IMG/VR virus record: IMGVR_UViG_3300028805_000056
Location: 64,001 to 128,000 of that record
DNA length: 64,000 nucleotides
Strand: one strand, 5' to 3'
Source: a virus
Lineage: Duplodnaviria; Caudoviricetes
The notes below the pieces were generated by a model, which saw only the letters and a program-made list of their open reading frames with translations, was not told the origin of the DNA and made no database searches. The translations under genes and the position numbers were made by a program. Positions 35,351-64,000 of this stretch are shown piece after piece (the first letter of the stretch is position 1; each line of letters starts with the position of its first letter).

Positions 35351-36313
35351 ATGGCTAAAACAAATAATACAAATCTGCATAGTGCAAAGAGAGAAAAGAA
35401 CGATGAGTTTTACACACTTCTCGAAGATGTTGAGGATGAGTTGAAGTACTACAAGGACTACTTTAAAGGCAAGGTAGTGTATTGTAACTGCGACAACGTG
35501 ACAAAAGACCAACGCAGCAACTTCTTCAGGTACTTTGCTCTCAACTATGAGTTTCTCGGACTTAAAGGGCTTGTCTGCACAGCCTACAACCCAAACGGCA
35601 AGGGAAAGAAGTACGAATATTTTGGTGACCTCAATGGCAACAACTACCCCGATGAGGAAGAAATCGAAACGACTGAAATGGACGGGGATGGTGACTTCCG
35701 TAGCCAAGAGTGTATCGAAATTCTCAAAAAGGCAGATGTTGTGGTAACAAATCCCCCGTTCTCCCTTTTCCGTGAATATGTTGCACAATTAATGGAGCAC
35801 GGCAAAAAATTCTTGATTGTCGGTGAACTGAACGTAGTTACCTACAAGGAAATATTCCCTCTTATCAAGGAAAATAAAGTTTGGCTTGGCGTTAAAAACG
35901 TAAACACTGATATGGTGTTTAAAGTTCCATCTTATTACGAGGCAAAAACAACTCGATATTGGCAAGATGAGAACGGACAAAAGTGGCGCAGTCTTGGAAA
36001 TGCTTGTTGGCTCACCAATCTTGACCACAAGAAACGCCACGAAGAAATGACACTTTATAAAAAGTACAATGCGGAGAACTATCCGAAGTACGACAACTAC
36101 GATGCAATCGAAGTGGGCAAGGTAACCGACATCCCTTGTGACTATGACGGAATTATGGGTGTGCCTATCACATTTCTTGGCAAATACAATCCAAGTCAAT
36201 TCGAAATAATTGGAATTGCAAATTCCGCTCGTTGGATAGGTGATTTCCCTTGTTATACAATTATAAATGGGAAGAAAATCTACAATCGCATATTAATCAA
36301 GCGAGTTTTCTAA
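35351..36313 (+). CDS. Adenine-specific DNA methyltransferase, EcoRI-methylase family
   Basis: KNDEFYT, VYCNCD, GDGDFRSQEC, VVTNPPFSLFREY, YDNYDAIEV, MGVPITF. Confidence 0.9.
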   Translation: MAKTNNTNLHSAKREKNDEFYTLLEDVEDELKYYKDYFKGKVVYCNCDNVTKDQRSNFFRYFALNYEFLGLKGLVCTAYNPNGKGKKYEYFGDLNGNNYPDEEEIETTEMDGDGDFRSQECIEILKKADVVVTNPPFSLFREYVAQLMEHGKKFLIVGELNVVTYKEIFPLIKENKVWLGVKNVNTDMVFKVPSYYEAKTTRYWQDENGQKWRSLGNACWLTNLDHKKRHEEMTLYKKYNAENYPKYDNYDAIEVGKVTDIPCDYDGIMGVPITFLGKYNPSQFEIIGIANSARWIGDFPCYTIINGKKIYNRILIKRVF

Positions 36314-49948: not shown

Positions 49949-49975
49949 TATATTTGCACAAAGAAGAAATTTGTT

Positions 49976-50221
49976 ATGAAGTTATTTGCGATTGGAAATT
50001 ATGACAAGTATAATGTTTATGCGTTAGTCATTGCTGAAACGGAAGAGCAAGCCCTTGAAAAAATCAAGAATCTTAAAGAAGGTGATAGTGTTGGGGGCTT
50101 TGGTGATGCTGATTATCCTCTTGATGAATTTGACCTTGAGGATGGGGCATCCATAAGTGACTTGAAAGAAACTAAAAGGGTAACTGAAATTACGAGCGGT
50201 ATATATTTTATGGAAAATTAA
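49976..50221 (+). CDS. Hypothetical protein
   Basis: 81 aa; TATATTTG at 49949. Confidence 0.6.
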   Translation: MKLFAIGNYDKYNVYALVIAETEEQALEKIKNLKEGDSVGGFGDADYPLDEFDLEDGASISDLKETKRVTEITSGIYFMEN

Positions 50222-50295
50222 TAACATAACTAATGAGCAACCGAAATAGGCTGTTCATTTTTTTTTGTACTTTTTCAAAAAAAGTTGGTGAAAAA

Positions 50296-50327
50296 TTTGG
50301 CCAATTGGGAAAATTGTCTTACCTTTG
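50296..50327 (+). promoter_or_regulatory. Class I promoter
   Basis: TTTG-N20-TACCTTTG, preceded by a hairpin at ~50232-50265. Confidence 0.8.
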
Positions 50328-50431
50328 CAGCCGAAATGAGAATGAAGGCTGCGTTTGTCAGCCGAAAACAAAAAACGTTGCGAAAAAAGTCGTTACGAAA
50401 AAAGTCGCATAACATTAATTTAATAGACACA

Positions 50432-51097
50432 ATGAAGGAAAAGATTAGTAATTTGATCAAGCCACTTAAGAAGAGTTTGGTTGCAGTGTTCTGTTTTGCA
50501 CTTGGTGCATTGGTTTACAAGTACATTAGTGAATACGTTGAGGAACAGCGTCTCCTGAATTATCCGTTTGTAGTAATGAAGCATGAGGCTGAACTATTCT
50601 ACAATGAGTTTAAGTGTGAACTTGTCAAGGTAACCAAGGCGTACATTGACAGTGTTGCACCGACGAGCAGTCTTAACGGTTATGCAGTAGTTGATCTTTG
50701 TGAACAGTATGACCTTGATATTAGATTTGTTCTTGCACAAGGTCAGGTTGAGTCACACTTCGGGACCAAGGGTATGGCAGCAAAGACAAACAGTGTGTTC
50801 AATGTCGGTGCATTTGATGGTGACACGTATGAACAGATTCAGGGAAGATACAAGTACAAGCACCCGGACTATTCAATTGAACCCTATATCCGACTATTAT
50901 ATAAGGATTATATTGGGGGTAAGAGAACCGAATTGGACCTTTTGGCTAAATATGTGAACAAGAATGGTAAACGATACGCAAGCGGTCCTGATTATGAGAA
51001 CAAATTGTTAGCCCTTTTTAAGAAGATTGATGAGACCACAAATATCAATTATTTGCAGGGAGAAATGCGCAGATATAAGATAATTTGCGGAAAATAA
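50432..51097 (+). CDS. Membrane-anchored glucosaminidase (GH73-like peptidoglycan hydrolase)
   Basis: N-terminal TM helix; LAQGQVESHFG, NSVFNVG, RYAS.PDYE. Confidence 0.75.
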   Translation: MKEKISNLIKPLKKSLVAVFCFALGALVYKYISEYVEEQRLLNYPFVVMKHEAELFYNEFKCELVKVTKAYIDSVAPTSSLNGYAVVDLCEQYDLDIRFVLAQGQVESHFGTKGMAAKTNSVFNVGAFDGDTYEQIQGRYKYKHPDYSIEPYIRLLYKDYIGGKRTELDLLAKYVNKNGKRYASGPDYENKLLALFKKIDETTNINYLQGEMRRYKIICGK

Positions 51098-51116
51098 TAA
51101 AAAAACCCTCAAAAAA

Positions 51117-51148
51117 TTTGGCCGATTCAAAATTTTTTCGTACCTTTG
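51117..51148 (+). promoter_or_regulatory. Class I promoter
   Basis: TTTG-N20-TACCTTTG. Confidence 0.8.
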
Positions 51149-51175
51149 CAAAAGAAAACTAAAACAGAGAAAGAT

Positions 51176-52516
51176 ATGAGTACATTGAACGAGATTTTCA
51201 ACGTGAAGTTGACTGAGAACGGTGACAAGAGTTTTAACTCTACTATGAACCCACTTTTGGACTTGCTTTTCATGTCCGAATACTACCAAAATCATTTGGA
51301 TGAGGTCCGTATCGGAAATTCCGAAAAGGAACAGTTGTTCGCAATGTTTATGCGTGACCCAAGGTATGGTGTCGGGCGCAGGGACTATGGCCGCGAACTG
51401 ATGAAGCAATCCGGTGTTCCAATGGAGGGTGTCATCCTTGCGGGACGTTTTGACGACCTCTTTTATAAGTGGGAGGAAATGCCCGAGGATGAGTTTAATA
51501 CCCTCGCAAAGTTCCTCTACCGTGAGATTTATAACGGTAATGAACTGGTCAAGAAGTGGATGCCTAGATACTCTTCCAAGAATCTGCTTCTTGCTAGGAA
51601 GTTTGCCAAGGCTTTTGGTATGAACAAGCAGCAATACGGTCACTTTGTCAAGTGTGACACGGTTGAGAACAAGTTGTCGAGAAAGGATACCGACAGCATT
51701 GTGTTCGAGCACGTACCGTCCCTGGCAATGCTGAAGTACTTCCAACGTTTCATGCGGAAGAATGACACGCATGACCGTTTCAACGAGTATCTTGAGAGTG
51801 TGAAGTCCGGGAATAAGGAAATCAAGGTGACAACGACGAATGTTTATGACATTTACAGAAATCGTCAGAATATTGATCCTGACGTATTCTTTGAGGCTCT
51901 CCCAAAGACAAAGGGAAACTGGCTGCCAATCATTGATACATCGGGTTCAATGGTATGTGGTGATGCTATGGGCAAGGCTCTCGCTATCGGTCACTATCTT
52001 GCCAAGACATCCACCTATGCCCCTGACACGGCAATAAGTTTCTCGTCTCACCCACAGTTAATAAAACTTGGGCAAGATAAAACGCGGGTTTATTACGATT
52101 ATGAATGTCCGGTTCGTGATGCGGGTGACAGCAAATACCTTAAGGAGATAAAGTCCTTATATACCGGTGATTGTTCGAATACGGATTTCGGTGCTGTTAT
52201 GGACCTGCTTAAGGACCTTACAGATGTTCCCGAGTATCTTGTTGTCCTTTCCGATATGGAGTTTGATCGCGGTAGTAATCAGTCCAAGGAAGAACTTGAA
52301 GCGTTGTGGAAGGAGAGGGGTTATAGGACCAAGATAGTTTGGTGGAACCTGAATGACCGTAATAAGACCGTTCCTGAGATTGACAAGAACGGAAACATCT
52401 ATATGAGCGGTTATTCTCCGCAGCTTCTCCAATATCTTGAGAGTGGCTTCGATGGGAATGCATTCCTCGAAAACTTGCTCACTGAGTACGCAAAGAAGAT
52501 AACCGCGGACCAATAA
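51176..52516 (+). CDS. DUF2828/TROVE-like protein with C-terminal vWA domain
   Basis: LTENG, RDPRYGVGRR, GRFDDL, KWMPR, VPSLAM; MIDAS motif DTSGSM, NTDF, LSDMEFD, VWWNL, SGYS. Confidence 0.8.
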   Translation: MSTLNEIFNVKLTENGDKSFNSTMNPLLDLLFMSEYYQNHLDEVRIGNSEKEQLFAMFMRDPRYGVGRRDYGRELMKQSGVPMEGVILAGRFDDLFYKWEEMPEDEFNTLAKFLYREIYNGNELVKKWMPRYSSKNLLLARKFAKAFGMNKQQYGHFVKCDTVENKLSRKDTDSIVFEHVPSLAMLKYFQRFMRKNDTHDRFNEYLESVKSGNKEIKVTTTNVYDIYRNRQNIDPDVFFEALPKTKGNWLPIIDTSGSMVCGDAMGKALAIGHYLAKTSTYAPDTAISFSSHPQLIKLGQDKTRVYYDYECPVRDAGDSKYLKEIKSLYTGDCSNTDFGAVMDLLKDLTDVPEYLVVLSDMEFDRGSNQSKEELEALWKERGYRTKIVWWNLNDRNKTVPEIDKNGNIYMSGYSPQLLQYLESGFDGNAFLENLLTEYAKKITADQ

Positions 52517-52548
52517 GTCCGTGGTTAACTTATTTTAACATCAAAAAT

Positions 52549-52579
52549 TTTGTAGTTTCCAAAAATTGTTGTACCTTTG
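52549..52579 (+). promoter_or_regulatory. Class I promoter heading the cassette array
   Basis: TTTG-N19-TACCTTTG; near-identical to 22106-22156; preceded by the TAACCGCGGAC/GTCCGTGGTTA hairpin. Confidence 0.8.
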
Positions 52580-52602
52580 CAGCAGAAACGGAGAATAAAG
52601 TT

Positions 52603-52836
52603 ATGAAAGCACCTGACAAGATTTATCGTACAACAACTTATCTTGACAATGATAAAGGTAAAACGTTGTGGAAAGAGGCTCCGGCTAAAGGGGCAGAAAA
52701 TATTGAATATACACGAACTGATACCTTTATTGATAAGGCTGTTAATTTTTTTATTCCATACATTCGAGATAATAGTGGTGGATATGAGAGAGCAGCCGTT
52801 ATTGAAGATTTCAAAAACTATATGAAAAGTGAATAA
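52603..52836 (+). CDS. Paralogue family B (APDKIY..EYTRTD.FI..KNYMK.E), copy 1
   Basis: Shared blocks with 55859, 56408 and 57230. Confidence 0.75.
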   Translation: MKAPDKIYRTTTYLDNDKGKTLWKEAPAKGAENIEYTRTDTFIDKAVNFFIPYIRDNSGGYERAAVIEDFKNYMKSE

Positions 52837-52838
52837 CT

Positions 52839-53312
52839 ATGGAAAAGGAAATTAACATTATAGCCCCAGAAGGCTACGAAATTGACAAAGAAAATAGTAC
52901 ACTTGAGTGTATTAAGTTCAAAGCAATCCAAAAGAAGAAAAGGTGGAGAGATAAAGATGCCGTAATAGGAGGATATTATATAAATGACTCCTCTGAAATT
53001 ATATTTGCTAAATGTCATAATACGCTTGCTAATTGTAATGTTTTCGCAACTAAAAAACAAGCCAAATCAGCACTTGCTATGGCAAGAATTAGTCAGATTA
53101 TGGCTAATGATGAAAGATTTGGTGGTGTTGTAACTGATGAAGAGTGGGCTGACGATGATTTATTCAAGTTTGCTATCACAAGAAAAAATAATCACATTGA
53201 GACAGCAATTTATGGTAGTTATTATGATTTCCTCGCCTTCCACACAAAAGAACAAAGAGATTTATTTCTTAAAGAGAATGAGGATTTAGTAAAAGATTAT
53301 TTAATGCTTTGA
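52839..53312 (+). CDS. Hypothetical phage protein
   Basis: 157 aa; APEGYEIDKENST; FHTKEQRDLFL. Confidence 0.7.
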   Translation: MEKEINIIAPEGYEIDKENSTLECIKFKAIQKKKRWRDKDAVIGGYYINDSSEIIFAKCHNTLANCNVFATKKQAKSALAMARISQIMANDERFGGVVTDEEWADDDLFKFAITRKNNHIETAIYGSYYDFLAFHTKEQRDLFLKENEDLVKDYLML

Positions 53313-53318
53313 TTTAAT

Positions 53319-54383
53319 ATGGACTACGAAAAGAGATATGAAAAACTTGTTGATGCAGTAAAAGTGCTGCGAGATAACAATCCATCTGACGAAGGTATTC
53401 AGAATTGGGTTAATGACAATGTGCCCGAACTCAAAGAGAGTGAGGGCGAAAAAATAAGGAAATGGCTTATCGCTCAACTTGAACTTAAATCAGATATTAA
53501 TAACCAACGTGATTTAGAATTGATGATTCTAAAAGCTATTGCTTGGCTTGAAAAACAGGGTGAAGTAGATAACCCACACAACTATCTATATGGTGAGCGG
53601 AAGTCGGTTGATAAAGTTAAGCCAAAGTTCAAGGTTGGTGATTGGGTAGTAGATGATTACGGTTTAATATGGAAAATAGGAGGAATCCTAAAACAATTTT
53701 ATCTCTTAGAAGGTGTAGGAGGGGGTGAATCACGTCCTACAATAGAACGGGTTGATAAGACCTATCATCTTTGGTCATTGAAGGATGCAAAGGATGGTGA
53801 TGTGCTTGTTGCTTCTGATGATTCTGTCTTTATTTATGCAGGTTCAACAGATATACATGCACAATTTTATATAGCATTAACTAAATATGGTGATTTCAAT
53901 ACTAAAGGCGGCAATTGGGAAGACAAAAATTGTGTCAAACCTGCAACCAAAGAGCAACGTGACCTCTTATTCCAAAAGATGAAGGAAGCGGGTTATGAAT
54001 GGGATGCTAAAAATAAAGAATTGAATAAGATTGAAGATGAGCCTGTTACTATAATTCCAAAATTTAAAGTTGGAGATATTATCAGGCATAAGAAACAAGG
54101 TTTTACATGTAAAATAACTGCCGTTGATACGGAATATAGATTATCTGAATGTAATGGAACTCATTTGCCTTTTGACTGTCAAGATTATTATGAACTTGTA
54201 GATGAAAATCCTGCTTGGAGTGAAGAAGATGAAGAAAATCTTAATCAATTACATAAACTTATTGTAAAAAAAGCGTATGAGGAATATGAAATTGATACTG
54301 AAGATGAAACTCTTTGGGGCAAACATGCTATTTTAGATAATTGGCTCAAATCTTTGAAAGAAAGAATAAAAGGAGGACATTAA
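53319..54383 (+). CDS. Paralogue family D mosaic protein, copy 1
   Basis: Blocks PELK.SE, IAWLEKQ, PKFKVGDW, HLWSLKDAKDGDVL and PATKEQRDLLFQKM.EAGYEWDA shared with 54387. Confidence 0.8.
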   Translation: MDYEKRYEKLVDAVKVLRDNNPSDEGIQNWVNDNVPELKESEGEKIRKWLIAQLELKSDINNQRDLELMILKAIAWLEKQGEVDNPHNYLYGERKSVDKVKPKFKVGDWVVDDYGLIWKIGGILKQFYLLEGVGGGESRPTIERVDKTYHLWSLKDAKDGDVLVASDDSVFIYAGSTDIHAQFYIALTKYGDFNTKGGNWEDKNCVKPATKEQRDLLFQKMKEAGYEWDAKNKELNKIEDEPVTIIPKFKVGDIIRHKKQGFTCKITAVDTEYRLSECNGTHLPFDCQDYYELVDENPAWSEEDEENLNQLHKLIVKKAYEEYEIDTEDETLWGKHAILDNWLKSLKERIKGGH

Positions 54384-54386
54384 ATT

Positions 54387-55553
54387 ATGACTACAGAAGA
54401 AAAGGCAAAACGTTTTGATGAAGTTGTTGAAGAATTTAGAGGACTTTTAGAAGGCGTTCATGAAGATAAATGTGATATTATGGAAGAAGATATATTAAAA
54501 ATTGTTCCTGAATTAAAAAGATCAGAAGATGAGAGGATAAGGAAGGAACTTTTGGAGCATTGTAAGAATCAAGCTAAACCATATATTCAGACAGGAAATA
54601 AATGTCCTCAAATTCAATCTTGGATTGCCTGGCTTGAAAAGCAAGATGAACAAAAACCTGCTGATAAATTTGAACCAAAGTTTAAGGTTGGTGACTGGAT
54701 TGTTTGGAAAGACAAGAACTATAAAGTCAATTATAATGCTTGTGGATATGAATTGTTTGACCAAAATGGTTTAAGTACATCTTGGGCTTATAAAACTATT
54801 GAAGATAATGCCCATCTTTGGTCATTAAAAGATGCAAAGGATGGTGACGTGCTTGCTTGCAATGAAGAAATTTTACTATTCAAATCATATTCAGTACAAA
54901 ACCGTATCTCTTTATACTGTTGGTATAACGGGCAAACAAATAATTTCCATGATAAAGAAGTGACTGATACTTTAGTAACTACAAGAAATAAGATATGCCC
55001 TGCCACTAAAGAACAACGTGACCTTTTATTCCAAAAGATGCACGAAGCGGGTTATGAATGGGATGCTGAAAAGAAAGAACCGAAGAAGATTCATGTTATT
55101 GATGAAGGCAAGGCTGAAATGGACTATTGTTCTAAAATGATGAATGGTGAGAAGGTAAGTCCAACTTGGACTGAAGAGGATGAAAAGATGGTGAAGGATA
55201 TAATAGCAGCTATCGATACATTATATTATCATGGAATGGTGAACTGGCTCAAATCCATCAAAGACAGAGTACAGCCACAGCCAAAGCAAGAGTGGAGTGA
55301 TGAAAATAAAAACATAATTGACGGTATAATTGAATATCTTGAATGTTTTAATGATTACGATTGTGGTGACGAGCCATATGAAGAATATTATGAAAGATTC
55401 GAAAAATACATTAAATTTATGGAGTCGCTTAAACCACAACCTCAGTGGAAACCAAGTGAAGAGCAGATGAACGAATTAACCTGTGTTATTAGCGGGTGTT
55501 CTTATGAAACCCCAATATTGATAGAGTTATTAGAACAACTAAAAAAACTTTAA
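54387..55553 (+). CDS. Paralogue family D mosaic protein, copy 2
   Basis: Same anchors as 53319 with unrelated intervening segments. Confidence 0.8.
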   Translation: MTTEEKAKRFDEVVEEFRGLLEGVHEDKCDIMEEDILKIVPELKRSEDERIRKELLEHCKNQAKPYIQTGNKCPQIQSWIAWLEKQDEQKPADKFEPKFKVGDWIVWKDKNYKVNYNACGYELFDQNGLSTSWAYKTIEDNAHLWSLKDAKDGDVLACNEEILLFKSYSVQNRISLYCWYNGQTNNFHDKEVTDTLVTTRNKICPATKEQRDLLFQKMHEAGYEWDAEKKEPKKIHVIDEGKAEMDYCSKMMNGEKVSPTWTEEDEKMVKDIIAAIDTLYYHGMVNWLKSIKDRVQPQPKQEWSDENKNIIDGIIEYLECFNDYDCGDEPYEEYYERFEKYIKFMESLKPQPQWKPSEEQMNELTCVISGCSYETPILIELLEQLKKL

Positions 55554-55554
55554 T

Positions 55555-55857
55555 ATGATATTTTATCACGGAACATCACAAGAAAATTGGGAGGCTATTC
55601 AGCAAGAAGGTTTCCTTTATGGCAGAAGATATATTACTGACAATAATGGAAAGATAGTCAAGGAGGTTAATAGATGTACATATCTTGCAACTGACTTGGA
55701 GGAAGCCGAACAATATGGAGACGTAGTGCTTCAAGTTGAGTATGACCCAAAGAATTCAACACATAACAACTATATAGATGGTTGTTGGCAGTTAAGAGTA
55801 TATGAACCTATACCTCTGTCTCAAATAAAATTACTTAACACAAGAAAGGAAGATTAA
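55555..55857 (+). CDS. Small ADP-ribosyltransferase-fold-like protein
   Basis: FYHGTS..YLATD..A..YG pattern. Confidence 0.45.
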   Translation: MIFYHGTSQENWEAIQQEGFLYGRRYITDNNGKIVKEVNRCTYLATDLEEAEQYGDVVLQVEYDPKNSTHNNYIDGCWQLRVYEPIPLSQIKLLNTRKED

Positions 55858-55858
55858 T

Positions 55859-56134
55859 ATGGAAGCACCAGAGAAGATTTATATGCCAAATGAATTGCTA
55901 TTAGAAGAATGGCAAAGACACATTGAAGGAGAGGATATTGAGTATGTTCGCACTGATTCATTTTTTGAGAAGGCAAAAGATTGGTTCATAACGCATGTCA
56001 ATATTCCACAAGATGTTGCAACTAATGAGGATGGAGAGCCATTAGCAGACAGTTATATCAAGTATGCGAAAGCAAGATTCAATGCAGCAAATGAAATGTT
56101 TGAAAACTTCAAAAACTATATGAAAGGAGAATAA
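55859..56134 (+). CDS. Paralogue family B, copy 2
   Basis: MEAPEKIY..EYVRTD..FKNYMKGE. Confidence 0.75.
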   Translation: MEAPEKIYMPNELLLEEWQRHIEGEDIEYVRTDSFFEKAKDWFITHVNIPQDVATNEDGEPLADSYIKYAKARFNAANEMFENFKNYMKGE

Positions 56135-56135
56135 T

Positions 56136-56405
56136 ATGAAAGACAGCGAAATAATTTATAGTATTTATGAATTCATGTCAGACAACGTTTTTGGCTTGTC
56201 ATTAATATCAATCTGTATTTTTTCTATTTATTTAATGTTTTTTTGGGAAAATAAAGTGAGATGGTGGCTTAGATTACCAATTATAAACTTATTGCTTTTT
56301 GTCCTTTTAATTATTGGAGGGACTATAGAAGAAATCTATCTTACCTTTCACCCGAAAGAACGAACAAAGTACATCAAAACAAGCATTTTTGATAGATTTT
56401 TTTAA
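56136..56405 (+). CDS. Small membrane protein
   Basis: Two hydrophobic helices. Confidence 0.6.
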   Translation: MKDSEIIYSIYEFMSDNVFGLSLISICIFSIYLMFFWENKVRWWLRLPIINLLLFVLLIIGGTIEEIYLTFHPKERTKYIKTSIFDRFF

Positions 56406-56407
56406 AT

Positions 56408-56626
56408 ATGGAAGCACCTGACAAGATTTACTTGGAAAAAGTATATCCAGATAACGGGATTTTGCCTAATGGACTTAATTATAATCAAAGTCCAAATGAT
56501 ATTGAATACACCCGAACTGATGCCTTTATTGAGAAGACTTGCAAGTTTCTTTTTGAAAATTATCACGGAGAGAAACTATCATTAAGAATGATTGAGGACT
56601 TCAAAAATTATATGAAAGGAGAATAA
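56408..56626 (+). CDS. Paralogue family B, copy 3
   Basis: MEAPDKIY..EYTRTDAFIEK..FKNYMKGE. Confidence 0.75.
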   Translation: MEAPDKIYLEKVYPDNGILPNGLNYNQSPNDIEYTRTDAFIEKTCKFLFENYHGEKLSLRMIEDFKNYMKGE

Positions 56627-56629
56627 ACT

Positions 56630-56785
56630 ATGACAAAAGAAGAATTAGTACAGTTTTTGAAAGATAACTTAAAAATAAAAATTGTTGCAGACAAATATTG
56701 TGACAATGGCTATGACATAATAGTAAAGGTATTATTGGGTGATGATTGTATTTCAGAATGTTCCGATTATATTATAGTAAGATAA
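56630..56785 (+). CDS. Small hypothetical protein (MTKEEL start)
   Basis: 51 aa, exactly fills the gap; below the ORF-track cutoff. Confidence 0.55.
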   Translation: MTKEELVQFLKDNLKIKIVADKYCDNGYDIIVKVLLGDDCISECSDYIIVR

Positions 56786-56788
56786 ATT

Positions 56789-57226
56789 ATGACACAAGAA
56801 GAAAAAGAGCTGTTAGTGAAGTATCTCTGTATGGCATTGCCTTATAATGTGAAATGCAATGTTCCAACTTATAATTTTGCAATGACACTTACAGGCAAAA
56901 GATTAAACTATTTCTGCTTTCATAAAAATGAGTGGGGTATTGATTATAGCCATGAGATTGAAGCAGTGTTAGACCCGTTGAATGACCAAAATAATGATTA
57001 TGTTGTCAAGCCCTATCTCCGCCAGATGTCAAGTATGACTGAGGAAGAAATAAATGAATATAATGAGTATCTTTTTTATGGTTCTTCAATAGGGTTGTCG
57101 TCAAATACAGTAACCGCCTATGAACTTATTAATTGGCTCCTCAAAAATCATTTTGACTTCTTGGGTTTGATCTCTAAAGGATTGGCTATTGAAGTAACAG
57201 AAGAGAATAATCCTTATAAAGAATAA
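56789..57226 (+). CDS. Paralogue family A, copy 2
   Basis: MTQEEKELL..YLCMALPY..KPYLRQMSSMT..NNPYKE. Confidence 0.8.
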   Translation: MTQEEKELLVKYLCMALPYNVKCNVPTYNFAMTLTGKRLNYFCFHKNEWGIDYSHEIEAVLDPLNDQNNDYVVKPYLRQMSSMTEEEINEYNEYLFYGSSIGLSSNTVTAYELINWLLKNHFDFLGLISKGLAIEVTEENNPYKE

Positions 57227-57229
57227 ATT

Positions 57230-57490
57230 ATGAAAGCAAACGAAGTACCGGAGAAAATTTATGTAACAGAAGGTATGTTGTTTATGACAAATCCTGAAAT
57301 AACTTTACGGGGAAATGGTAATAAAATTGAGTACACTCGAACTGATGCCTTTATTGAGAAGGCTTGCAATTTTATTAGAATCAATGCATATAAATATCGC
57401 AAATTAAAGTTTGTTAAAAATAAACCAACTTTTGACTTTCGTACAGATTGGCTTATTGAGGATTTAAGAAATTATATGAAAGGAGAATAA
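57230..57490 (+). CDS. Paralogue family B, copy 4
   Basis: PEKIY..EYTRTDAFIEKA..NYMKGE. Confidence 0.75.
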   Translation: MKANEVPEKIYVTEGMLFMTNPEITLRGNGNKIEYTRTDAFIEKACNFIRINAYKYRKLKFVKNKPTFDFRTDWLIEDLRNYMKGE

Positions 57491-57493
57491 ACT

Positions 57494-57628
57494 ATGAAAC
57501 TGATTATACACGATTTGGACAACAATGTCGTAGATGTGATAATTTGTAAAACACCAATTTCCAAAGGTATTAAGGAAGCTAAAAAGAAATATCCGCCAGG
57601 AAAATATACAGCAACTTTAACATTTTAA
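57494..57628 (+). CDS. Small hypothetical protein
   Basis: 44 aa; begins ATGAAACTGATT like family C. Confidence 0.5.
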   Translation: MKLIIHDLDNNVVDVIICKTPISKGIKEAKKKYPPGKYTATLTF

Positions 57629-57633
57629 AATAT

Positions 57634-58017
57634 ATGAGCCTGATAGACAAAGACGCTTTAAAGGTGGAGATAGAGAAAGAGATAAAAGACATTTATGCAG
57701 GTAGAGAATATGTCGGCATCCCTTCTTGGGAGGAAAGAGAAATTGACGGATTAGAAAAAGCAATAGAAATCTTGAACACCCTTGAAGTGAAAGGGGTGGA
57801 CTTAGAGAAGGAAATAACTTTATGGGCAAATGCAAATCCAGAAATACGACTTGATGACGTTGAAAGACTTGCAAAGCATTTCTTTGAATTAGGCATTAAA
57901 GTAAGTAGGATGACCGCTGTTTTAGATAGTGGAATTGCGGAGGAATTTATATTAGACCTTAAAAGGCTTGAAAACGACTATAAGCGGCTGATGAAAAAGA
58001 TACAGAAAGGAGAATAA
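57634..58017 (+). CDS. Paralogue family C (LIDKD..EVK.VD..AKHFFELGIK..QKGE), copy 1
   Basis: Shared blocks with 60699 and 61593. Confidence 0.75.
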   Translation: MSLIDKDALKVEIEKEIKDIYAGREYVGIPSWEEREIDGLEKAIEILNTLEVKGVDLEKEITLWANANPEIRLDDVERLAKHFFELGIKVSRMTAVLDSGIAEEFILDLKRLENDYKRLMKKIQKGE

Positions 58018-58059
58018 ATAGCCACCAAATGTTAAAATTATGTTAAAAACATGAATTTC

Positions 58060-58091
58060 CTTGGTCAATTTAAAAAATTGTAGTACATTTG
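58060..58091 (+). promoter_or_regulatory. Class I promoter variant
   Basis: CTTG-N20-TACATTTG followed by CAGCAGAAA. Confidence 0.7.
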
Positions 58092-58123
58092 CAGCAGAAA
58101 ACAAAAAACAAAGATAAGAAACT

Positions 58124-58300
58124 ATGACAATCAGAGAAAGAATACAACGCATTGCTACAAAGGCAAACGTACCATATGGAACAATAAGCATTTTGGTGAA
58201 CAGTTTCTATGGGAAGGGAAGCATTCCTTTTGAGGACAGAATTGAATTACTTGAAAAACAATATGAAATACATGGGAATAACAGTCGGACGAATTGTTGA
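58124..58300 (+). CDS. Small hypothetical protein
   Basis: 58 aa, MTIRERIQR.., first ORF after the promoter. Confidence 0.5.
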   Translation: MTIRERIQRIATKANVPYGTISILVNSFYGKGSIPFEDRIELLEKQYEIHGNNSRTNC

Positions 58301-58466
58301 AGGGTTTTGTATCCTCCCTTCTATTAATTTAACTTGGGCAACATTAAAAGTAAAAGATAAACTGCCTGGTAATTATGCTACATATTATGACCTGCAATTT
58401 GCATGGCTATTTTGGTATTTTACTATTGGACAGATTAAAAACAAGTTAAAGGAACAAGGGTATTAA
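58263..58466 (+). CDS. Hypothetical protein
   Basis: 3' part of ORF 58209..58466; start uncertain. Confidence 0.45.
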   Translation: MKYMGITVGRIVEGFCILPSINLTWATLKVKDKLPGNYATYYDLQFAWLFWYFTIGQIKNKLKEQGY

Positions 58467-58487
58467 ATGAAAAATTGTGAATAAACT

Positions 58488-58637
58488 ATGAGAATTAATT
58501 ATGCAGAACTCTATGGCGTAGCAGATAATGAATCAGATTTCAGTGGTGCTATTAAGAGGTCACTTAATATGGGGATGATGCATCTTGGGGAGAATTTTAT
58601 AGAGACCATAAATAAAATTAGAAAAAAAGGGGAGTAG
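58488..58637 (+). CDS. Small hypothetical protein ending KGE
   Basis: 49 aa, MRINYAEL..RKKGE*. Confidence 0.5.
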   Translation: MRINYAELYGVADNESDFSGAIKRSLNMGMMHLGENFIETINKIRKKGE

Positions 58638-58640
58638 ACT

Positions 58641-58814
58641 ATGACACAAGAAGATAAAGAAAACATCATCTATTGGTTTGAACATATTGCACAAATTGCA
58701 GATGACAGGAAAACTGCCAATGGTGTAGTTATGGAAGATTGGGCTGCCCTTGATGAAATTAGGGCAATTGCCAAAGACAGTATATATTATATCAAAAATC
58801 ATTGTAATTTATGA
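58641..58814 (+). CDS. Small hypothetical protein (MTQED start)
   Basis: 57 aa; ATGA overlap with the next gene. Confidence 0.55.
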   Translation: MTQEDKENIIYWFEHIAQIADDRKTANGVVMEDWAALDEIRAIAKDSIYYIKNHCNL

Positions 58815-59206
58815 CAAAAGAAAATAAAGAACTATTAATGAAATACCTCTGTATGGCATCGCCATATGATGTTATAGTTGATTACGAGAATCATATCTAT
58901 ATACTTAATGAGGTTAACCCAGCTTGTAAGGATATGGACTATATTACTGTTCTCATACAAGATGTAGAAAGATTAATGTGTGCTGAAAACGAAATGATAG
59001 AAGACATTAAGCCATATCTCCGTCCAATGTCAAGTATGACTGAGGAAGAATTAAAAGAATTTCAAGAATTTAGAAACATTACTCCATTAGATTGGCTTCC
59101 TCTTGCACTTGATTGGCTTCTTGAATATCATTTTGACTTTATGGGTTTAATTCCCAAAGATTTGGCTATTGAAGTAACTGAAGAAAACAATCCGTATGAA
59201 AATTAG
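58811..59206 (+). CDS. Paralogue family A, copy 3
   Basis: Family anchors present; C-terminus altered to NNPYEN. Confidence 0.8.
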   Translation: MTKENKELLMKYLCMASPYDVIVDYENHIYILNEVNPACKDMDYITVLIQDVERLMCAENEMIEDIKPYLRPMSSMTEEELKEFQEFRNITPLDWLPLALDWLLEYHFDFMGLIPKDLAIEVTEENNPYEN

Positions 59207-59438
59207 AGTTGGATTCGGCACAAACGGTGACATATATGCAGACTTAGAGAAAGTGAAAGCCTGTAATTTTTGTACGCATTTCAAAGGTTATGGTCTCCAT
59301 GCTTGTACTGGGCACTGTTTTAAACTTGAAAAAGACATAGACGGAGGCTATATAGGAAATTATAGTAAAGTAGCTCAAGAATGTGATGTTTTCAATGTTA
59401 GACCCGAACTAATTGAAAATAATCCATATAAAGAATAA
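59196..59438 (+). CDS. Cys-rich small protein ending ENNPYKE
   Basis: 80 aa; CNFC; carries the family A terminal peptide. Confidence 0.65.
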   Translation: MKIRVGFGTNGDIYADLEKVKACNFCTHFKGYGLHACTGHCFKLEKDIDGGYIGNYSKVAQECDVFNVRPELIENNPYKE

Positions 59439-59442
59439 AGTT

Positions 59443-59913
59443 ATGACACAAGAAGAAAAAGAACTATTACTGAAGTACCTTTGTATGGCATTGCCTTATG
59501 GGGTAATCGTTGACTACAAGGAAAATGAATTTGAATTACCACATTGGAAAATAACAACCATTCATCCAGAAACATTGAGTGGTTGGATTGGTTATGACAA
59601 GAGAGTCGGAGCAGGTTCTGAAAGTGGTAGCAGACATTTTAAGATTGGGGATGTGAAACCCTATCTCCGTCCAATGTCAAGTATGACTGAGGAAGAGAAG
59701 GAGGAAATGCACAATCTATTATCTCCTGAAGGAACCGCAATTTATGGCTATGATGGAATTAGTATGCCAATGAATCATTATGGTGAGTTTGTTTCTTATG
59801 AGTTTATGAATCGCATCATTCAATATCTTCTTAAAAATCACTTCGACTTCATGGGTTTAATCCCTAAAGATTTGGCTATTGAAGTAACTGAAAGTAATAA
59901 TCCCTATAAGTAA
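59443..59913 (+). CDS. Paralogue family A, copy 4
   Basis: MTQEEKELLLKYLCMALPY..KPYLRPMSSMT..NNPYK. Confidence 0.8.
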   Translation: MTQEEKELLLKYLCMALPYGVIVDYKENEFELPHWKITTIHPETLSGWIGYDKRVGAGSESGSRHFKIGDVKPYLRPMSSMTEEEKEEMHNLLSPEGTAIYGYDGISMPMNHYGEFVSYEFMNRIIQYLLKNHFDFMGLIPKDLAIEVTESNNPYK

Positions 59914-59917
59914 AGTT

Positions 59918-60112
59918 ATGACATATATACCTGAAAGTAAAATAAAATCATACATAGAATATTGTAAAGATAAAACATTTAATGTAGTATGTGATTGCGG
60001 AGATATAGTAGAGGTAAGTCTTACACCGTATTTCTATGATGAGAAAGAAAATGATGTATATTTCGCATCATTGTGCCCTAAATGTGGAAAATTGATAATT
60101 ACTAAAGAATAA
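59918..60112 (+). CDS. Small zinc-ribbon protein
   Basis: CDCG..CPKCG. Confidence 0.6.
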   Translation: MTYIPESKIKSYIEYCKDKTFNVVCDCGDIVEVSLTPYFYDEKENDVYFASLCPKCGKLIITKE

Positions 60113-60116
60113 AGTT

Positions 60117-60296
60117 ATGTCAAAGATTAAATGTATATTATGTGACGGACGCAAAGAAGCAACGGAGGCTTTAAATGAGTTAAAGGAAAAAGGTCACAAT
60201 TTATCAATGAATTTGCTATCAATCACACAAGATGGAATGTGTTATACCATATTCTATAACGATGTGTTTGACGGAAGAGGTAATGGAAATTTATAA
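60117..60296 (+). CDS. Small hypothetical protein
   Basis: 59 aa, MSKIKCILCD.., fills the gap. Confidence 0.5.
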   Translation: MSKIKCILCDGRKEATEALNELKEKGHNLSMNLLSITQDGMCYTIFYNDVFDGRGNGNL

Positions 60297-60300
60297 AATT

Positions 60301-60702
60301 ATGAACAAGATTTGTACCTCATTAGAACAATCCAAGAAACTCATAGAGTTAGGAATTGATGTTAAAACTGCTGATATGTGTTGGACTAATCATTTATTCA
60401 ATGCATTTCTTTCAAGTTGGAGAATTGAAAGTACTCCACCACAAGAATATAAGAATCTTTTAGATAGGTTTGTAGTAAGAGGTTATCTTATAGAACCCGC
60501 ATGGAGTCTTACGGCATTAGAACAATTGATGCCCAAAATTGGAGCACACGAACCAATGCTGCGTAAGCTGTATTACATAAGTGAACCAACAGAGAGATAT
60601 ATTTGCCAATATAGTTTAACTGACATGACGAGTGAATACGACAATCCTGTTGATGCTTGTTATGAAATGGTTTGTTTTTTAAAAGAAAACGGAAAGATAT
60701 GA
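60301..60702 (+). CDS. Hypothetical phage protein
   Basis: MNKICTSLEQSKKLIELGID..PAWSL..DACYEM. Confidence 0.7.
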   Translation: MNKICTSLEQSKKLIELGIDVKTADMCWTNHLFNAFLSSWRIESTPPQEYKNLLDRFVVRGYLIEPAWSLTALEQLMPKIGAHEPMLRKLYYISEPTERYICQYSLTDMTSEYDNPVDACYEMVCFLKENGKI

Positions 60703-61037
60703 AACTGATTGACAAAGATAGAGTAATGACAATACTATCAAATAAGATAGCAGATATAGAACTTGACATGAAGTGTGGCTTTCTTAAGAAAAGGAAAGGA
60801 GTTAATAATATACTTGTCCTTAAACATATTATTTCTCTCATTGATACAATTGAGGTGAAAGATGTTGACTTAGGGGATATTATAGACACATATATAAATA
60901 ACCATTATAGTGAAGGATGTGATAAAGGTATGATAAGTGACGCAAATAGGGATATAGGCGGTGTTACTTATTTTGATCTTATGGACATTGCCAAACATTT
61001 CTTTGAATTAGGCATTAAAGCACAGAAAGGAGAATAA
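60699..61037 (+). CDS. Paralogue family C, copy 2
   Basis: MKLIDKD..IEVKDVD..AKHFFELGIKAQKGE. Confidence 0.75.
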   Translation: MKLIDKDRVMTILSNKIADIELDMKCGFLKKRKGVNNILVLKHIISLIDTIEVKDVDLGDIIDTYINNHYSEGCDKGMISDANRDIGGVTYFDLMDIAKHFFELGIKAQKGE

Positions 61038-61038
61038 T

Positions 61039-61350
61039 ATGAAGGTACATTATACATCGGATGGAATATTAGCAAATACAAAGTGTCCTTATGGGCATAA
61101 ATCTGGCTTGATCACTACAAAGGTTGGTTCAATTGATTGCCACCGCCATTGCAAATTTTACCGTTCTACAAATTATAAGGAAAAGTATGTAGTTTGTATG
61201 GGTGATTGCTCTTCACAACTTGAAGAAATCCTTGACAAGATAGACGTTATTATAGCAAATGATAAGTTTGATGATATATGCTTTGAGGATTTTCTTGCAG
61301 AAATTAGAGAAGATATTGCATCAGTATTGGATAATATCGAAAATAAATAG
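61039..61350 (+). CDS. Cys-rich hypothetical protein
   Basis: 103 aa ORF. Confidence 0.6.
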   Translation: MKVHYTSDGILANTKCPYGHKSGLITTKVGSIDCHRHCKFYRSTNYKEKYVVCMGDCSSQLEEILDKIDVIIANDKFDDICFEDFLAEIREDIASVLDNIENK

Positions 61351-61354
61351 AGTT

Positions 61355-61606
61355 ATGGAAACGCACTATATAGACAAATCCGCTATAAAACAAAAAGTTC
61401 AAGAAAAGTTACTTGATGCTTGTACAAGACATTATGAGGCAGAAATGGCGTTATGTGAAATCGCCGCGCCACAATCATGGAAAGATGAAGCAAAGGCGGC
61501 ATGGGAGGAATTTGTTTGGAGATATCAAGACTATGAGTTAGTTTTTAAATATGATATGGATATAACGAAAGATGACTTAAATTATGACGATTATGAAACT
61601 GATTGA
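61355..61606 (+). CDS. Hypothetical protein
   Basis: Probable start METHYIDKS. Confidence 0.6.
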   Translation: METHYIDKSAIKQKVQEKLLDACTRHYEAEMALCEIAAPQSWKDEAKAAWEEFVWRYQDYELVFKYDMDITKDDLNYDDYETD

Positions 61607-61991
61607 TAAAGATGCTTTAAGAACGGAAATAGAGAGAAGAATTTCAACATATAAACGTCACTATGAAGAGTTAGTACGTTATGAAGTATGGAATGATGCT
61701 AAAAAAATAGAACCAAAGATTAATGAATTGGAAAATTTACTTTCTTTTATTAACACCATTGAAGTAAAAGAGGTGGAAACTTGGCATTTACAAGAAAAAG
61801 AAGATATATATGATGCAGTTAAAGATTGGGGTCTTTACAAATTTGTATGTATAATGAAAGATGGAACTATCCAAAGATTTAATGGATGCCTTGATGAAGA
61901 TTGTGAAGGGCATATTAATGTACATATAAATGGAATTAATGATGATTATGATGATGTTGATGACATTGTAAAATGGATAGAAATCACTTAA
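61593..61991 (+). CDS. Paralogue family C, copy 3 (replaced C-terminus)
   Basis: MKLIDKDALRTEIE..NTIEVKEV, then an unrelated tail. Confidence 0.7.
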   Translation: MKLIDKDALRTEIERRISTYKRHYEELVRYEVWNDAKKIEPKINELENLLSFINTIEVKEVETWHLQEKEDIYDAVKDWGLYKFVCIMKDGTIQRFNGCLDEDCEGHINVHINGINDDYDDVDDIVKWIEIT

Positions 61992-62114
61992 AGTACAAAA
62001 AGGAGAATAGTATTATGGAAAAATATAATAAAAATGATGACAATTGGGTGGTTGATTATCGATTTTATCCTGAACAAGGATATTGTAGAAGTTGGCTAAC
62101 TAATAAAAAGGAAA

Positions 62115-62273
62115 ATGAATACAGATAAACTTTTAGAAATATTGCTCGAAGCAATAGATTATTCCTTTCTTCAAACTAATGGTGATTATGACAAGTCTTT
62201 GACTTATCCTGTTATCGACAAAGTTAAGTATATAAAAGAGAAACTAAAAAACAAGGAAGTAAAAGGAGAATAA
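62115..62273 (+). CDS. Small hypothetical protein ending KGE
   Basis: 52 aa, MNTDKLLE..EVKGE*. Confidence 0.5.
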   Translation: MNTDKLLEILLEAIDYSFLQTNGDYDKSLTYPVIDKVKYIKEKLKNKEVKGE

Positions 62274-62277
62274 AATT

Positions 62278-63582
62278 ATGACACAAAGAGAAGAAATACC
62301 CAAAACAAATGTAGAAATTAAGGTAGGTGGTCTCATTAAGAATGAACTAAAACCAAGCAATCCTTTGTCCAAGGAGTTGTTTAAGGATATGAAATCCATT
62401 GGTATCAACTACGTCATTACAAGTTATATCCAAGACAGAAAAGGTTCCGATAACCTTAACAGCCTACTTGAAACCTTAAGTAATGCGGACGAGGTTGGAA
62501 TTGACGTTATTACAAGTTTCAGAGTTCTATCTAAGACCGAAAGCGACAAGGATGTAATCAGAAATAGGGAAAAGGAATATTGGTGGTATGCCGATAATTT
62601 TTCTGAGGATAAACTCAAATTGGCAATAGAACATCCGTCATTCAAGGGTGTGTTCATCGACGAACCGAACGACAAGGATGAAACATATGAAAATCTTAAG
62701 AATTTATATGATATCTTCAAGAAATATAATGTTAAGGTGGACATAAACCTGTTCCCTAATTATACCAGTATGTTCACCGCAGACAACAACAAGTGGAATA
62801 CAGGTAGGAATTTCAAGGAATATGTCGAGAGATATGCCCAAATAAGCGATACAATCGGTGTTGATTTTTATCCTATCAATTATTCCACCGATTACTACAT
62901 TGCAGGTTCAAAACTAAAGGCTTGGGCTGAGTGTCTTGAAACACTCTTGCAATTGCATCACAAATACCCAGAGAAAGACTACAAGGTGTTTATACAGACA
63001 AGCAAACACACATCTTATGGGGCATTGACCGACACATCATACCTAATTCAAACGTATGGCGACCTAATAGGCGGTTGCCGTGATGTGAGGTATTTTTGTC
63101 TGACAGACAATGATGTCAAGGAGGGTATTGCTGCTTTCGAATGTTCCCCTTATACAAGTGACCATACGGGATACCAACATGGTGAAACCTATAACATCGT
63201 GAAACTGATAAATCAGTCAACTGATTTTAAGACATTCAGAGATAATATCGGGAAAAGATATATTGATCACGTCGACATTTACAAGGAAGACGCGCCGATA
63301 TTGGGAACAATCACAAACTTCACTGAATTGGTTAGGACAAGCACCGGCAACATAATGGTTTCTGTCGGCTATGATAAGGAGAATACATATTGTCATATCC
63401 TGAACATAGACCCAAATAGGGAAGCAGTAATTACGGACTTCTATGGCACAACGGAAACATTGCTGCCCGGTATGAGAATGACCGTAACGAAAAAGATTGG
63501 CGGGAATGATAGTGAAGAAACACAAAAGAAACCGAATATTTTCAAGAGAATTTGGAATTGGATTAAAAACATTTTTAAATAA
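62278..63582 (+). CDS. Putative glycoside-hydrolase-like TIM-barrel protein
   Basis: HPSFKGVFIDEPN, INLFPNY, YVERY, DTIGVDFYPI, VFIQT patterns. Confidence 0.45.
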   Translation: MTQREEIPKTNVEIKVGGLIKNELKPSNPLSKELFKDMKSIGINYVITSYIQDRKGSDNLNSLLETLSNADEVGIDVITSFRVLSKTESDKDVIRNREKEYWWYADNFSEDKLKLAIEHPSFKGVFIDEPNDKDETYENLKNLYDIFKKYNVKVDINLFPNYTSMFTADNNKWNTGRNFKEYVERYAQISDTIGVDFYPINYSTDYYIAGSKLKAWAECLETLLQLHHKYPEKDYKVFIQTSKHTSYGALTDTSYLIQTYGDLIGGCRDVRYFCLTDNDVKEGIAAFECSPYTSDHTGYQHGETYNIVKLINQSTDFKTFRDNIGKRYIDHVDIYKEDAPILGTITNFTELVRTSTGNIMVSVGYDKENTYCHILNIDPNREAVITDFYGTTETLLPGMRMTVTKKIGGNDSEETQKKPNIFKRIWNWIKNIFK

Positions 63583-63593
63583 AAAAAAAAGAT

Positions 63594-63830
63594 ATGGATA
63601 TACTATTATTTTGGATTTTTGGATGGGTTTTGTTTTTTGTCGGATATATCATCTATAACAAATATATAGACGGACATAATGAGCCAATTACGAAGTTGAT
63701 GGTCTATGAAGGAATAAAATATGGAATGTGGTCATGGATTGGCATTGTAATAATGGTCGTATTCTTTATCATTATGCTCATTACCGCAATTGACGAATGG
63801 TTAACCGAAAAACTTAGTAAAAATAAATGA
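63594..63830 (+). CDS. Small membrane protein
   Basis: Two hydrophobic helices. Confidence 0.6.
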   Translation: MDILLFWIFGWVLFFVGYIIYNKYIDGHNEPITKLMVYEGIKYGMWSWIGIVIMVVFFIIMLITAIDEWLTEKLSKNK

Positions 63831-63835
63831 GAGAT

Positions 63836-64000
63836 ATGAAGAAACTGTTTTTTATTTTAATGGCTTTTATAGCCATTGCACTCGTATCTTGTTGTGCGCC
63901 TGAAAATATGGATGAGAATTGTGATGATGTCACAATTATCCGTCGTAATAGCGACAATGTTGAATATGTTCTGATTAAAGACTGGTTCGATTTTAAATAT
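63836..64000 (+). CDS. Putative lipoprotein (truncated by the window end)
   Basis: MKKLFFILMAFIAIALVS-C lipobox. Confidence 0.55.
   Translation, partial: MKKLFFILMAFIAIALVSCCAPENMDENCDDVTIIRRNSDNVEYVLIKDWFDFKY

Follow-up and report, generated by a model that had tools for sequence, protein, structure and literature searches.

Phages evolve by exchanging modules, as in the scheme of Susskind and Botstein, and it was later debated whether boundary sequences or selection set the module ends. An integron comprises the tyrosine recombinase IntI, an attI site and promoterless cassettes, flanked by attC sites, that lie behind the promoter Pc. Here we analyse an array of ~31 co-directional open reading frames (ORFs; 52603-63830) with repeated gene ends in a 64,000-nucleotide stretch of phage DNA (hereafter, the window), corresponding to bases 64001-128000 of a 148,551-bp IMG/VR virus record (Caudoviricetes); positions refer to the window unless given for the contig. 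As in the modules of Susskind and Botstein, mosaic ends lie at gene borders and short conserved border sequences are candidate crossover points, but here each module comprises only one gene, 50-150 codons long, and its border sequence is at the same time an initiation signal. The closest known kinds of system are T4-type hyperplastic regions with PeSL cassettes and translational coupling assisted by Shine-Dalgarno (SD) sequences. In the T4-type regions, small and mostly orphan early genes likewise lie behind repeated host-type promoters, single genes are inserted, deleted or replaced between close relatives and the promoter element is scattered through the genome; mini-circles have been shown for PeSLs (Arbiol et al. 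2010, PMC2839356). PeSL borders coincide with the repeated cassette, whereas most borders mapped here fall at stop/start junctions that have no promoter repeat, and most gene borders of the array have neither a promoter nor a terminator. The genes of the array also abut or overlap in one predicted transcript and belong largely to paralog families, the host appears to be a member of Bacteroidota, and the genome is probably ~350 kb.

SD motifs inside an upstream gene influence coupling to the next one (PMC6728339, PMC12548453). The junctions described below resemble these cases: the end of the upstream coding sequence holds a GGAG core 10-14 nt before the next ATG, and this core is more frequent at overlaps and 0-5-nt gaps than before leading genes. 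The difference is that Bacteroidetes were reported as the one group apparently not using SD even for restart, whereas here the tight-to-loose ratio is ~4-6. Bacteroidia keep strong SDs before the ribosomal-protein genes rpsR, rplI, rplF and rplE (Jha et al. 2021, PMC7797042), which provides a parallel for SDs at selected genes of a phylum otherwise lacking them; the role proposed there is autoregulation of proteins that hide the anti-SD, whereas here unrelated phage genes are involved.

Our analysis indicates that the array is probably a hyperplastic small-gene block of a Bacteroidota-host jumbo phage, in which shared ends represent paralog tips combined with an SD-like coupling signal and genes are exchanged singly. 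A first-pass annotation had described the array as unrelated small genes framed by shared stop/start junctions. The repeated ends are indeed there. The 12-mer AAAGGAGAATAA occurs in six copies, on the plus strand only (56123, 56615, 57479, 58006, 61026 and 62262), that is, at all six stops preceded by KGE which that annotation had listed (56134, 56626, 57490, 58017, 61037 and 62273); 0.03 copies are expected in shuffles and none of 100 shuffles reached six. ATGACAMAAGAAGA has 6 occurrences against 0.00 expected. The AAAGAATAA ends at 57226, 59438, 60112 and 21228 and the ATGACA-type starts are also where they had been placed. The observation is thus real, and what was misdescribed is relatedness. 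Five of the six KGE genes belong to family A (55859, 56408, 57230) or C (57634, 60699). Family B supplies the tails at three of the four AAAGAATAA ends and four of the nine ATGACA-type starts (56789, 58811, 59443, 20854); these assignments have E-values of 1e-7 to 1e-35, and the NNPYKE ends all lie within paralog families. A cross-family remainder is real and includes genes 62115-62273 and 58488-58637, family D tails and the starts at 56630, 58641, 62278, 54387 and 21233.

Families A, B, C, D, E, X, Y and Z, recognized from translations, alignments and all-against-all BLASTP of 219 contig ORFs, are present in multiple copies across the contig. Similarity between members spans nearly the full length (E-values 1e-7 to 1e-67 in the 219-protein database), as in paralogous multigene families. 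Family A has 5 copies (MEAPDKIY...IEYTRTD...NYMKGE-stop), family B 9 (MTQEEKELL.KYLC...KPYLRPMSSMTEEE...HFDF.GLI...NNPYKE-stop), family C 6 (MKLIDKDAL...VKEVDL...KHFFELGIK.QKGE-stop), D and E 6 each, and Y and Z 2 each. Family X has 3 copies (contig 47840, 132554 and 146511), none within 52603-62296. Clusters of family members are located at 32-36 kb and 47-54 kb of the contig (minus strand) and at 116-127 kb and 131-138 kb (plus strand). In each family the termini are conserved and the middle varies; at the DNA level, paralogs are alike only in blocks of 40-90 nt (85-96% identity). Most shared gene ends are therefore conserved tips of paralog families, alike by descent. Across the clade, hidden Markov models (HMMs) collected 31 members of family A, 187 of B, 44 of C, 77 of D and 65 of E. 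Searches of Pfam and PHROGs assigned families A-E no function, the only match being phrog_10841 (function unknown) for family B; a protein atlas returned nothing usable for family D, and an AlphaFold2 model of family B (49 sequences, pLDDT 69) had no PDB match at E<=0.001.

The 148.5-kb fragment is 41% complete according to CheckV. Complete relatives measure 350-410 kb. Two of them, G001 (348,671 bp) and G005 (353,025 bp), end in direct terminal repeats and have a completeness rating of 100%, which makes ~350 kb the probable full genome size of this phage as well. Relatives in IMG/VR were collected as 71 loci via a family B alignment (most contigs 40-410 kb, several complete at 350-410 kb); junction statistics are based on 2,828 called genes from related jumbo-phage loci. 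All-against-all megablast of 81 loci returned only identical or very distant pairs, apart from one 98.9% pair (L046/L048). As the IMG/VR loci provided no usable close pairs, breakpoints were taken from Logan/ENA contigs, reached via near-identical proteins. Megablast of 52000-64000 against GenBank phages gave no match, relatives found via the flanking 446-aa gene were too distant and had no array, and peptide patterns of the 434-aa gene retrieved no IMG/VR relatives. An independent ENA assembly agrees in gene content and order (ENA gene table).

The first-pass annotation had counted about 30 tightly packed co-directional genes behind a promoter, in agreement with the ~31 ORFs, whose gaps range from -11 to +6 nt (mostly 1-6 nt or short overlaps), and with the Bacteroidota-type promoter at 52549-52579. 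The sole break in the array, 58018-58123, contains a second promoter. The consensus of Bacteroidota promoters is TTTG / TAnnTTTG. Both promoters belong to a repeat of 60-75 nt (TTTG, 19-20 nt, TAnnTTTG, then GCAGCAGAAA), of which the contig has ~14 copies, 75-95% identical, before unrelated genes. Copies in the window are at 52525-52588, 58043-58106, 22098-22156, 31788-31873, 33830-33915, 50260-50345 and 51092-51177, with more outside it. The repeat is possibly a PeSL-like regulatory cassette, and the copy at 52525 is preceded by a terminator-like hairpin (52503-52528). Sequences upstream of genes are rich in A, position -1 is T in 66% of genes and only 11% have GGAG/GAGG nearby; this, together with the promoter consensus, fits a Bacteroidota host. 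One copy of the repeat stands directly before a tRNA-like sequence (contig 58545-58630, minus strand). An extra 81-aa gene with its own TATATTTG promoter occupies 49949-50256, where a relative (L091:9122-9142) has a terminator hairpin only. A full-length gene for DnaK (Hsp70; 39264-41150) has its best GenBank phage matches in uncultured huge phages (60-65% aa identity), and 15 Prevotella phage records are among the matches. An alternative genetic code, an idea from the Lak-type Prevotella phages among these matches, was ruled out by coding density under table 11 (~90% of the contig) and by stop usage (TAA 139, TGA 64, TAG 16). An Rfam scan of 52000-64000 found no families. The features of the array are as follows.

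52525..52602, plus strand: promoter-repeat copy and short leader (TTTG at 52549-52552, 19 nt, TACCTTTG at 52572-52579; repeat part 52525-52588)
52603..52836, plus strand: family A paralog, 77 aa, ending NYMKSE; the final codons serve as initiation region for the gene that follows (AAAAGTGAATAACT-ATG)
52839..53312, plus strand: family Y, 157 aa; paralog of contig 35575-36051 (minus strand), E-value 6e-59
53319..55553, plus strand: pair of family D paralogs in tandem (354 and 388 aa), the upstream one ending IKGGH (AAAGGAGGACATTAA)
55555..55857, plus strand: single-gene cassette, 100 aa; 92.5% identical over exactly this gene in L094/L095
55859..56134, plus strand: family A paralog ending YMKGE; 12-mer at 56123-56134, 1 nt before ATG 56136
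56408..56626, plus strand: family A paralog ending YMKGE; 12-mer at 56615-56626, 3 nt before ATG 56630
56789..57226, plus strand: family B paralog, MTQEEKELL...NNPYKE; N-terminal half 92.9% identical to a gene of L092
57230..57490, plus strand: family A paralog ending YMKGE; 12-mer at 57479-57490, 3 nt before ATG 57494
57634..58017, plus strand: family C paralog ending IQKGE; 12-mer at 58006-58017, next 106 nt without a gene
58043..58106, plus strand: second promoter-repeat copy (TACATTTG at 58084-58091); splits the array into two transcription units
58488..58637, plus strand: singleton ending KKGE (AAAAAAGGGGAGTAG)
58811..59206, plus strand: family B paralog ending NNPYEN
59196..59438, plus strand: chimeric gene, novel body and family B tail ENNPYKE; between direct repeats GAAAAYAATCCRTAT matching at 13/15 positions (59183-59443)
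59443..59913, plus strand: family B paralog, 156 aa
60301..60702, plus strand: family E paralog ending ENGKI; ATGA overlap with the next gene, alternative start at 60232
60699..61037, plus strand: family C paralog ending AQKGE; 12-mer at 61026-61037, 1 nt before ATG 61039
61039..61350, plus strand: single-gene cassette, 103 aa; copies with at least 90% aa identity in five other contexts
61593..61991, plus strand: family C paralog without the KGE tail
62115..62273, plus strand: singleton ending VKGE; 12-mer at 62262-62273, 4 nt before ATG 62278
62278..63582, plus strand: family Z, 434 aa; 95% nt identity in L090

AAAAGTGAATAACT, which encodes the KSE tail of gene 52603, also precedes the other family Y copy behind a promoter, where there is no A gene, and another contig copy of family D ends in LKGE. 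The chimeric gene 59196-59438 could have arisen in two ways: new sequence was inserted into the end of a B gene, or a deletion joined a gene to what was left of a vanished B paralog; NNPYEN tails are also natural in other family B copies. The product of 55555-55857 is possibly an ADP-ribosyltransferase-like effector, as suggested by a sub-threshold match to the PARP catalytic domain (Pfam E-value 0.006); it also matches phrog_6170 and phrog_13493, and 13 variants, spread over many short contigs, make up its 90%-identity cluster.

Beyond common descent, a minority of gene ends carry a position-specific, purine-rich motif, its complementarity being judged against the canonical anti-SD CCUCC, which may not be that of the host; its position agrees with the 5-10 nt before the start expected for SD-assisted coupling. 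GGAG/GAGG starts peak at -14 to -10 before ATG (sum ~10%, versus ~0.35% per flanking position). The motif is found at 16.5% of junctions with gaps of 0-5 nt, 9.4% of overlaps and 3.2% of gaps >20 nt; tight junctions of related jumbo phages overall have it in 13-17% of cases, versus 2-5% elsewhere. Relative to the stop, the peak is at -7/-6 for gaps of 0-5 nt and at -15 to -11 for overlaps. It thus shifts with the downstream ATG rather than with the stop, indicating that the motif follows the downstream start. The enrichment at close or overlapping pairs is independent of gene family: where neither gene has a homologue in the set, the motif is present at 20/154 tight versus 10/422 loose junctions (odds ratio 6.1, p=3e-6). 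Variants at these homologue-free junctions are degenerate (GGAGGACTAA, GGAGGGCTGA, GGAGATAA), with the core alone in common. The same bases occur in non-coding sequence, namely in the leader at 52590-52598 (GGAGAATAA, 4 nt before ATG 52603), in a 15-nt spacer (contig 137103-137118) and in another leader (contig ~53917-53931, minus strand). Gene starts are biased too. Residue 2 is Thr in 13% of genes versus 5.2% internally, this Thr is coded by ACA in 74% versus 39.5% of cases, and MT[QKR]E[ED] starts are found in 38 strict families outside family B.

Two readings that dispense with an initiation signal have to be weighed against these data. KGE might act at the peptide level as a C-terminal signal, e.g. 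a degradation or interaction tag: it is the commonest C-terminal tripeptide at tight junctions (28/594), occurring in at least 14 families, in 20 strict clusters and, by HMM label, in families A, C, D and E. Its codons, however, are fixed at the gene end, where KGE is coded as AAAGGAGAR in 39/40 cases, and free internally (31/140; Fisher test for the GGA codon, p=1.4e-13); this points to a nucleotide-level rather than a peptide signal. Moreover, the same bases stand in the non-coding leaders, other frames and tails (KEE, MEE, GG, KGGH) preserve GGAG and not the peptide, and the frequency depends on how close the next gene is, which makes a peptide signal highly improbable. Alternatively, the motif may lack any present function, having spread by descent in the expanded families, with the rest due to chance and an A/G-rich codon bias. 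This would agree with the motif tracking the upstream family, with its persistence at 58006-58017 without a next gene and with Bacteroidia ribosomes ignoring SD. It does not explain the positional peak, which follows the downstream ATG at overlaps, or the enrichment at tight junctions of homologue-free genes; KGE ends outside families A-E number 10 versus ~2 expected, with at least 9/10 using the same codons, and gene 61039 has the motif in all its contexts, which for three independent upstream gene types and a base rate of 17% gives p ~0.005. We regard this second reading as improbable.

In the explanation we favour, two copies of the repeated host-type promoter would drive the block, and the conserved N- and C-terminal blocks of families A, B, C, D, E, Y and Z yield matching ends by descent. 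Because genes lie 1-5 nt apart or overlap, the initiation region falls within the last codons of the preceding gene. At 10-17% of tight junctions this region holds the SD-like GGAG(G/A) 10-14 nt before ATG, followed by an A/T-rich spacer holding the TAA, and a signal so placed forces KGE, KEE, MEE or GG tails on the upstream protein. Starts favour ATGACA and A-rich codons (MT[QKR]EE), and the SD-like core would likely help the terminating ribosome restart on the next gene, i.e. provide translational coupling. Several observations weigh against this explanation. Most tight junctions lack the motif, and its presence tracks the upstream family (0.31 versus a base rate of 0.13) and not the downstream one (0.12); the latter rules out the motif being in general a property of the downstream gene, to which gene 61039 seems to be an exception. 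One downstream gene may have the motif in one phage and lack it in another. The copy at 58006-58017 has no gene after it; with 106 nt devoid of genes, it appears to be inherited and couples to nothing. In this contig, 12/49 tight junctions in arrays versus 2/36 elsewhere have the motif, an excess largely due to expansion of families A, C and D, and the family counts are not phylogenetically independent. Among tight junctions of relatives, it is found in 11.4% at array loci minus families A-E, 7.8% at core loci and 10.8% for genes >=200 aa. Bacteroidia ribosomes bury the anti-SD and show no SD recognition in vitro (PMC7797042), no gene for bS21, which could free the anti-SD, was found in the fragment (relatives were not searched for it), and Huber et al. 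2019 judged SD to be unused in Bacteroidetes even at overlaps (~10%, quotient 2; PMC6728339). Given these reports of SD disuse, we infer the coupling function from position and codon choice alone, the SD-like element itself being a clear sequence signal.

Comparison with close relatives revealed that array genes are gained, lost and reordered singly, and homology breaks off no more than a few nt from gene borders. L092 (a 16.4-kb stretch of a 49-kb contig) is a patchwork of gene-sized segments with 88-96% identity to scattered counterparts in this contig (window 61025-61336, 58640-58809, 58262-58491 and 56787-57039; contig 137114-137314 and, on the minus strand, 53243-52799). It carries a promoter-repeat copy as well, a shared copy with different flanks, and its counterpart of gene 58641-58814, the next after 58488-58637, is 93.5% identical and has no preceding GGAG. 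Both neighbours of 55555-55857 differ in L094/L095; beside the small-gene array with the 55555-type gene, L094:12-443 encodes a Y1 (IS200-type) transposase (PF01797). In two contigs with an identical 104-aa protein, the single preceding gene differs (86 aa versus 64 aa). In L090, homology around the Z gene begins at 62262, inside the motif (there AAAAGAGAATAA), and upstream genes are different. Segment ends lie <=10 nt from a gene border in 14/30 cases versus 6.7% expected (p=2e-9), an undercount because some small genes are absent from the gene list. Cassette shuffling thus exists as a pattern.

Gene 61039 provides the strongest case for exchange at the motif. Its upstream neighbour may be a family C gene, any of three different family A paralogs or a 119-aa gene unrelated to these; all of these neighbours end in [K/E]GE, and (A/G)AAGGAGAATAA stands before the gene in every context. 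The TAA-ATG spacers all differ (T, AGAT, A, GTT, AAAC), implying that the joints are in the spacer, outside the motif; recurrence of the motif at 61039 would then reflect selection for an SD-bearing neighbour and not crossing-over inside the motif. The 119-aa gene (L097:728-1087, also L098, L099, L104 and L105) has no homologue in the 3,059-protein set; its ELVDGAHRL resembles a ParB-type nuclease motif, judging by eye. Other events were also seen. In family B, identity between window 56787-57039 and L092:4463-4715 is 92.9% and drops to 69% from the conserved KPYLRPMSSMTEEE block (57039), a switch at a conserved block that shows recombination between paralogs. In the core region, the gene for a 211-aa methyltransferase (L091:5114-5698) is deleted here at 46525 (contig 110525) between 10-nt direct repeats GAAAAAATTG, i.e. 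by a microhomology deletion; identity to L091 is 93-97%, ~25 nt of the 5' end are left, and the ATG is changed to TTG. Finally, a 57-nt block (family C tail, motif and ATGAAGGT) is common to the upstream sides of two unrelated genes.

What mediates these exchanges is a separate question. The first-pass annotation had proposed that the junctions act as portable short homology arms by which genes are inserted, excised or reordered, that is, that phage recombination exchanges single genes through the junction consensus (AAGGAGAATAA, 1-4 nt, ATGACA...). Single-gene gain, loss and reordering with homology ending at gene borders is indeed seen, and the arms would also account for gene 61039 following the motif behind five different upstream genes, for homology to the window beginning at the motif in L090 (62262) and L092 (61025), for the 57-nt block before two unrelated genes and for the chimeric gene 59196-59438 lying between 15-nt repeats; the motif is also commoner in arrays than in the rest of this contig, and RecA-fold genes are present in 3/5 complete relatives. 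The breakpoints do not bear out the arms themselves. Of 10 mapped left borders, all with homology running out 0-7 nt ahead of ATG, 2/10 have the KGE/SD motif on both sides and 8/10 lack it on one or both; the joints of 61039 are beyond the motif, and in homologue-free genes the variants share nothing but the SD core. The annotation had also set a check, namely that equal motif frequency at core-gene junctions would speak for mere translation-initiation bias, and rates at large- or core-gene junctions of relatives turned out similar to those of arrays (7.8-11.8% versus 11-13%), roughly that outcome. Searches of the fragment detected neither ERF nor RecT nor an integrase, and those of five relatives no integrase or ERF. 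Twelve identical bases are also fewer than the homology efficiently used by well-studied phage recombinases. Evidence on the motif as mediator of shuffling is therefore mixed and leans against it; a role as homology arm is neither shown nor excluded, and we consider it unlikely. Longer repeats, either the PeSL-like promoter repeats of 60-75 nt or the conserved N-terminal, central and C-terminal blocks of paralogs, could instead drive shuffling without the junction motif. For this speak the ~14 promoter copies before different genes, the copy in L092, the hairpin at 52503-52528, the switch at the central block of family B and the paralog blocks of 40-90 nt at 85-96%, and there is the precedent of PeSLs (PMC2839356). 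Most single-gene borders, however, are at stop/start junctions between different families with no promoter repeat nearby, and the 10-kb array holds two promoter copies only; longer repeats are a possible but less likely driver. It is rather unlikely that the junction (SD-like core, built-in stop, spacer and ATGACA-type start) doubles as a microhomology crossover that moves single genes between arrays or co-infecting jumbo phages; if true, this would be an integron-like outcome without integrase or attC, in phages of a phylum that ignores SD. Within the explanation we favour, related phages exchange genes singly, and joints persist nowhere but in the short stretch separating stop and start; their most likely source would be recombination between paralog blocks, together with microhomology or illegitimate joins that passed selection, rather than a site-specific system. 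The mosaic pattern is plain, and this route is the one it suggests. Earlier expectations are thus partly supported, right in part about what happens, namely that genes are exchanged singly with coupling preserved, and without support as to mechanism.

The array shares with integrons co-directional, small and mostly promoterless genes behind a common promoter and gene-by-gene variation. Neither defining part was found, and it does not qualify as an integron. In line with the absence of integrase and attC from the first-pass annotation, tyrosine integrase (PF00589) was not found in the 148.5-kb fragment (41% complete) or in five 97-100% complete relatives, and there are no attC-like imperfect inverted repeats at junctions, which measure 1-5 nt or are overlaps; two weak 12-nt inverted pairs in 52500-62400 lie away from KGE junctions. 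ERF was likewise not found in the fragment or the five relatives, nor were RecT and RecA in the fragment; one clear RecA and two weak matches to the RecA family are distributed over 3/5 complete relatives.

Repeated gene ends can therefore pass for portable arms when they really are paralog tips combined with an initiation signal. The relatives make up a widely distributed clade of large rumen phages; a few expanded orphan families, shuffled gene by gene, compose their early regions. They also offer a testable case of SD-like motifs concentrated at coupled junctions in a Bacteroidota system, whose ribosomes reportedly do not recognise SD. Should the motif be functional, it would bear on how terminating ribosomes restart in Bacteroidota, and C-terminal tails in dense phage genomes would be partly set by the start signal of the next gene.

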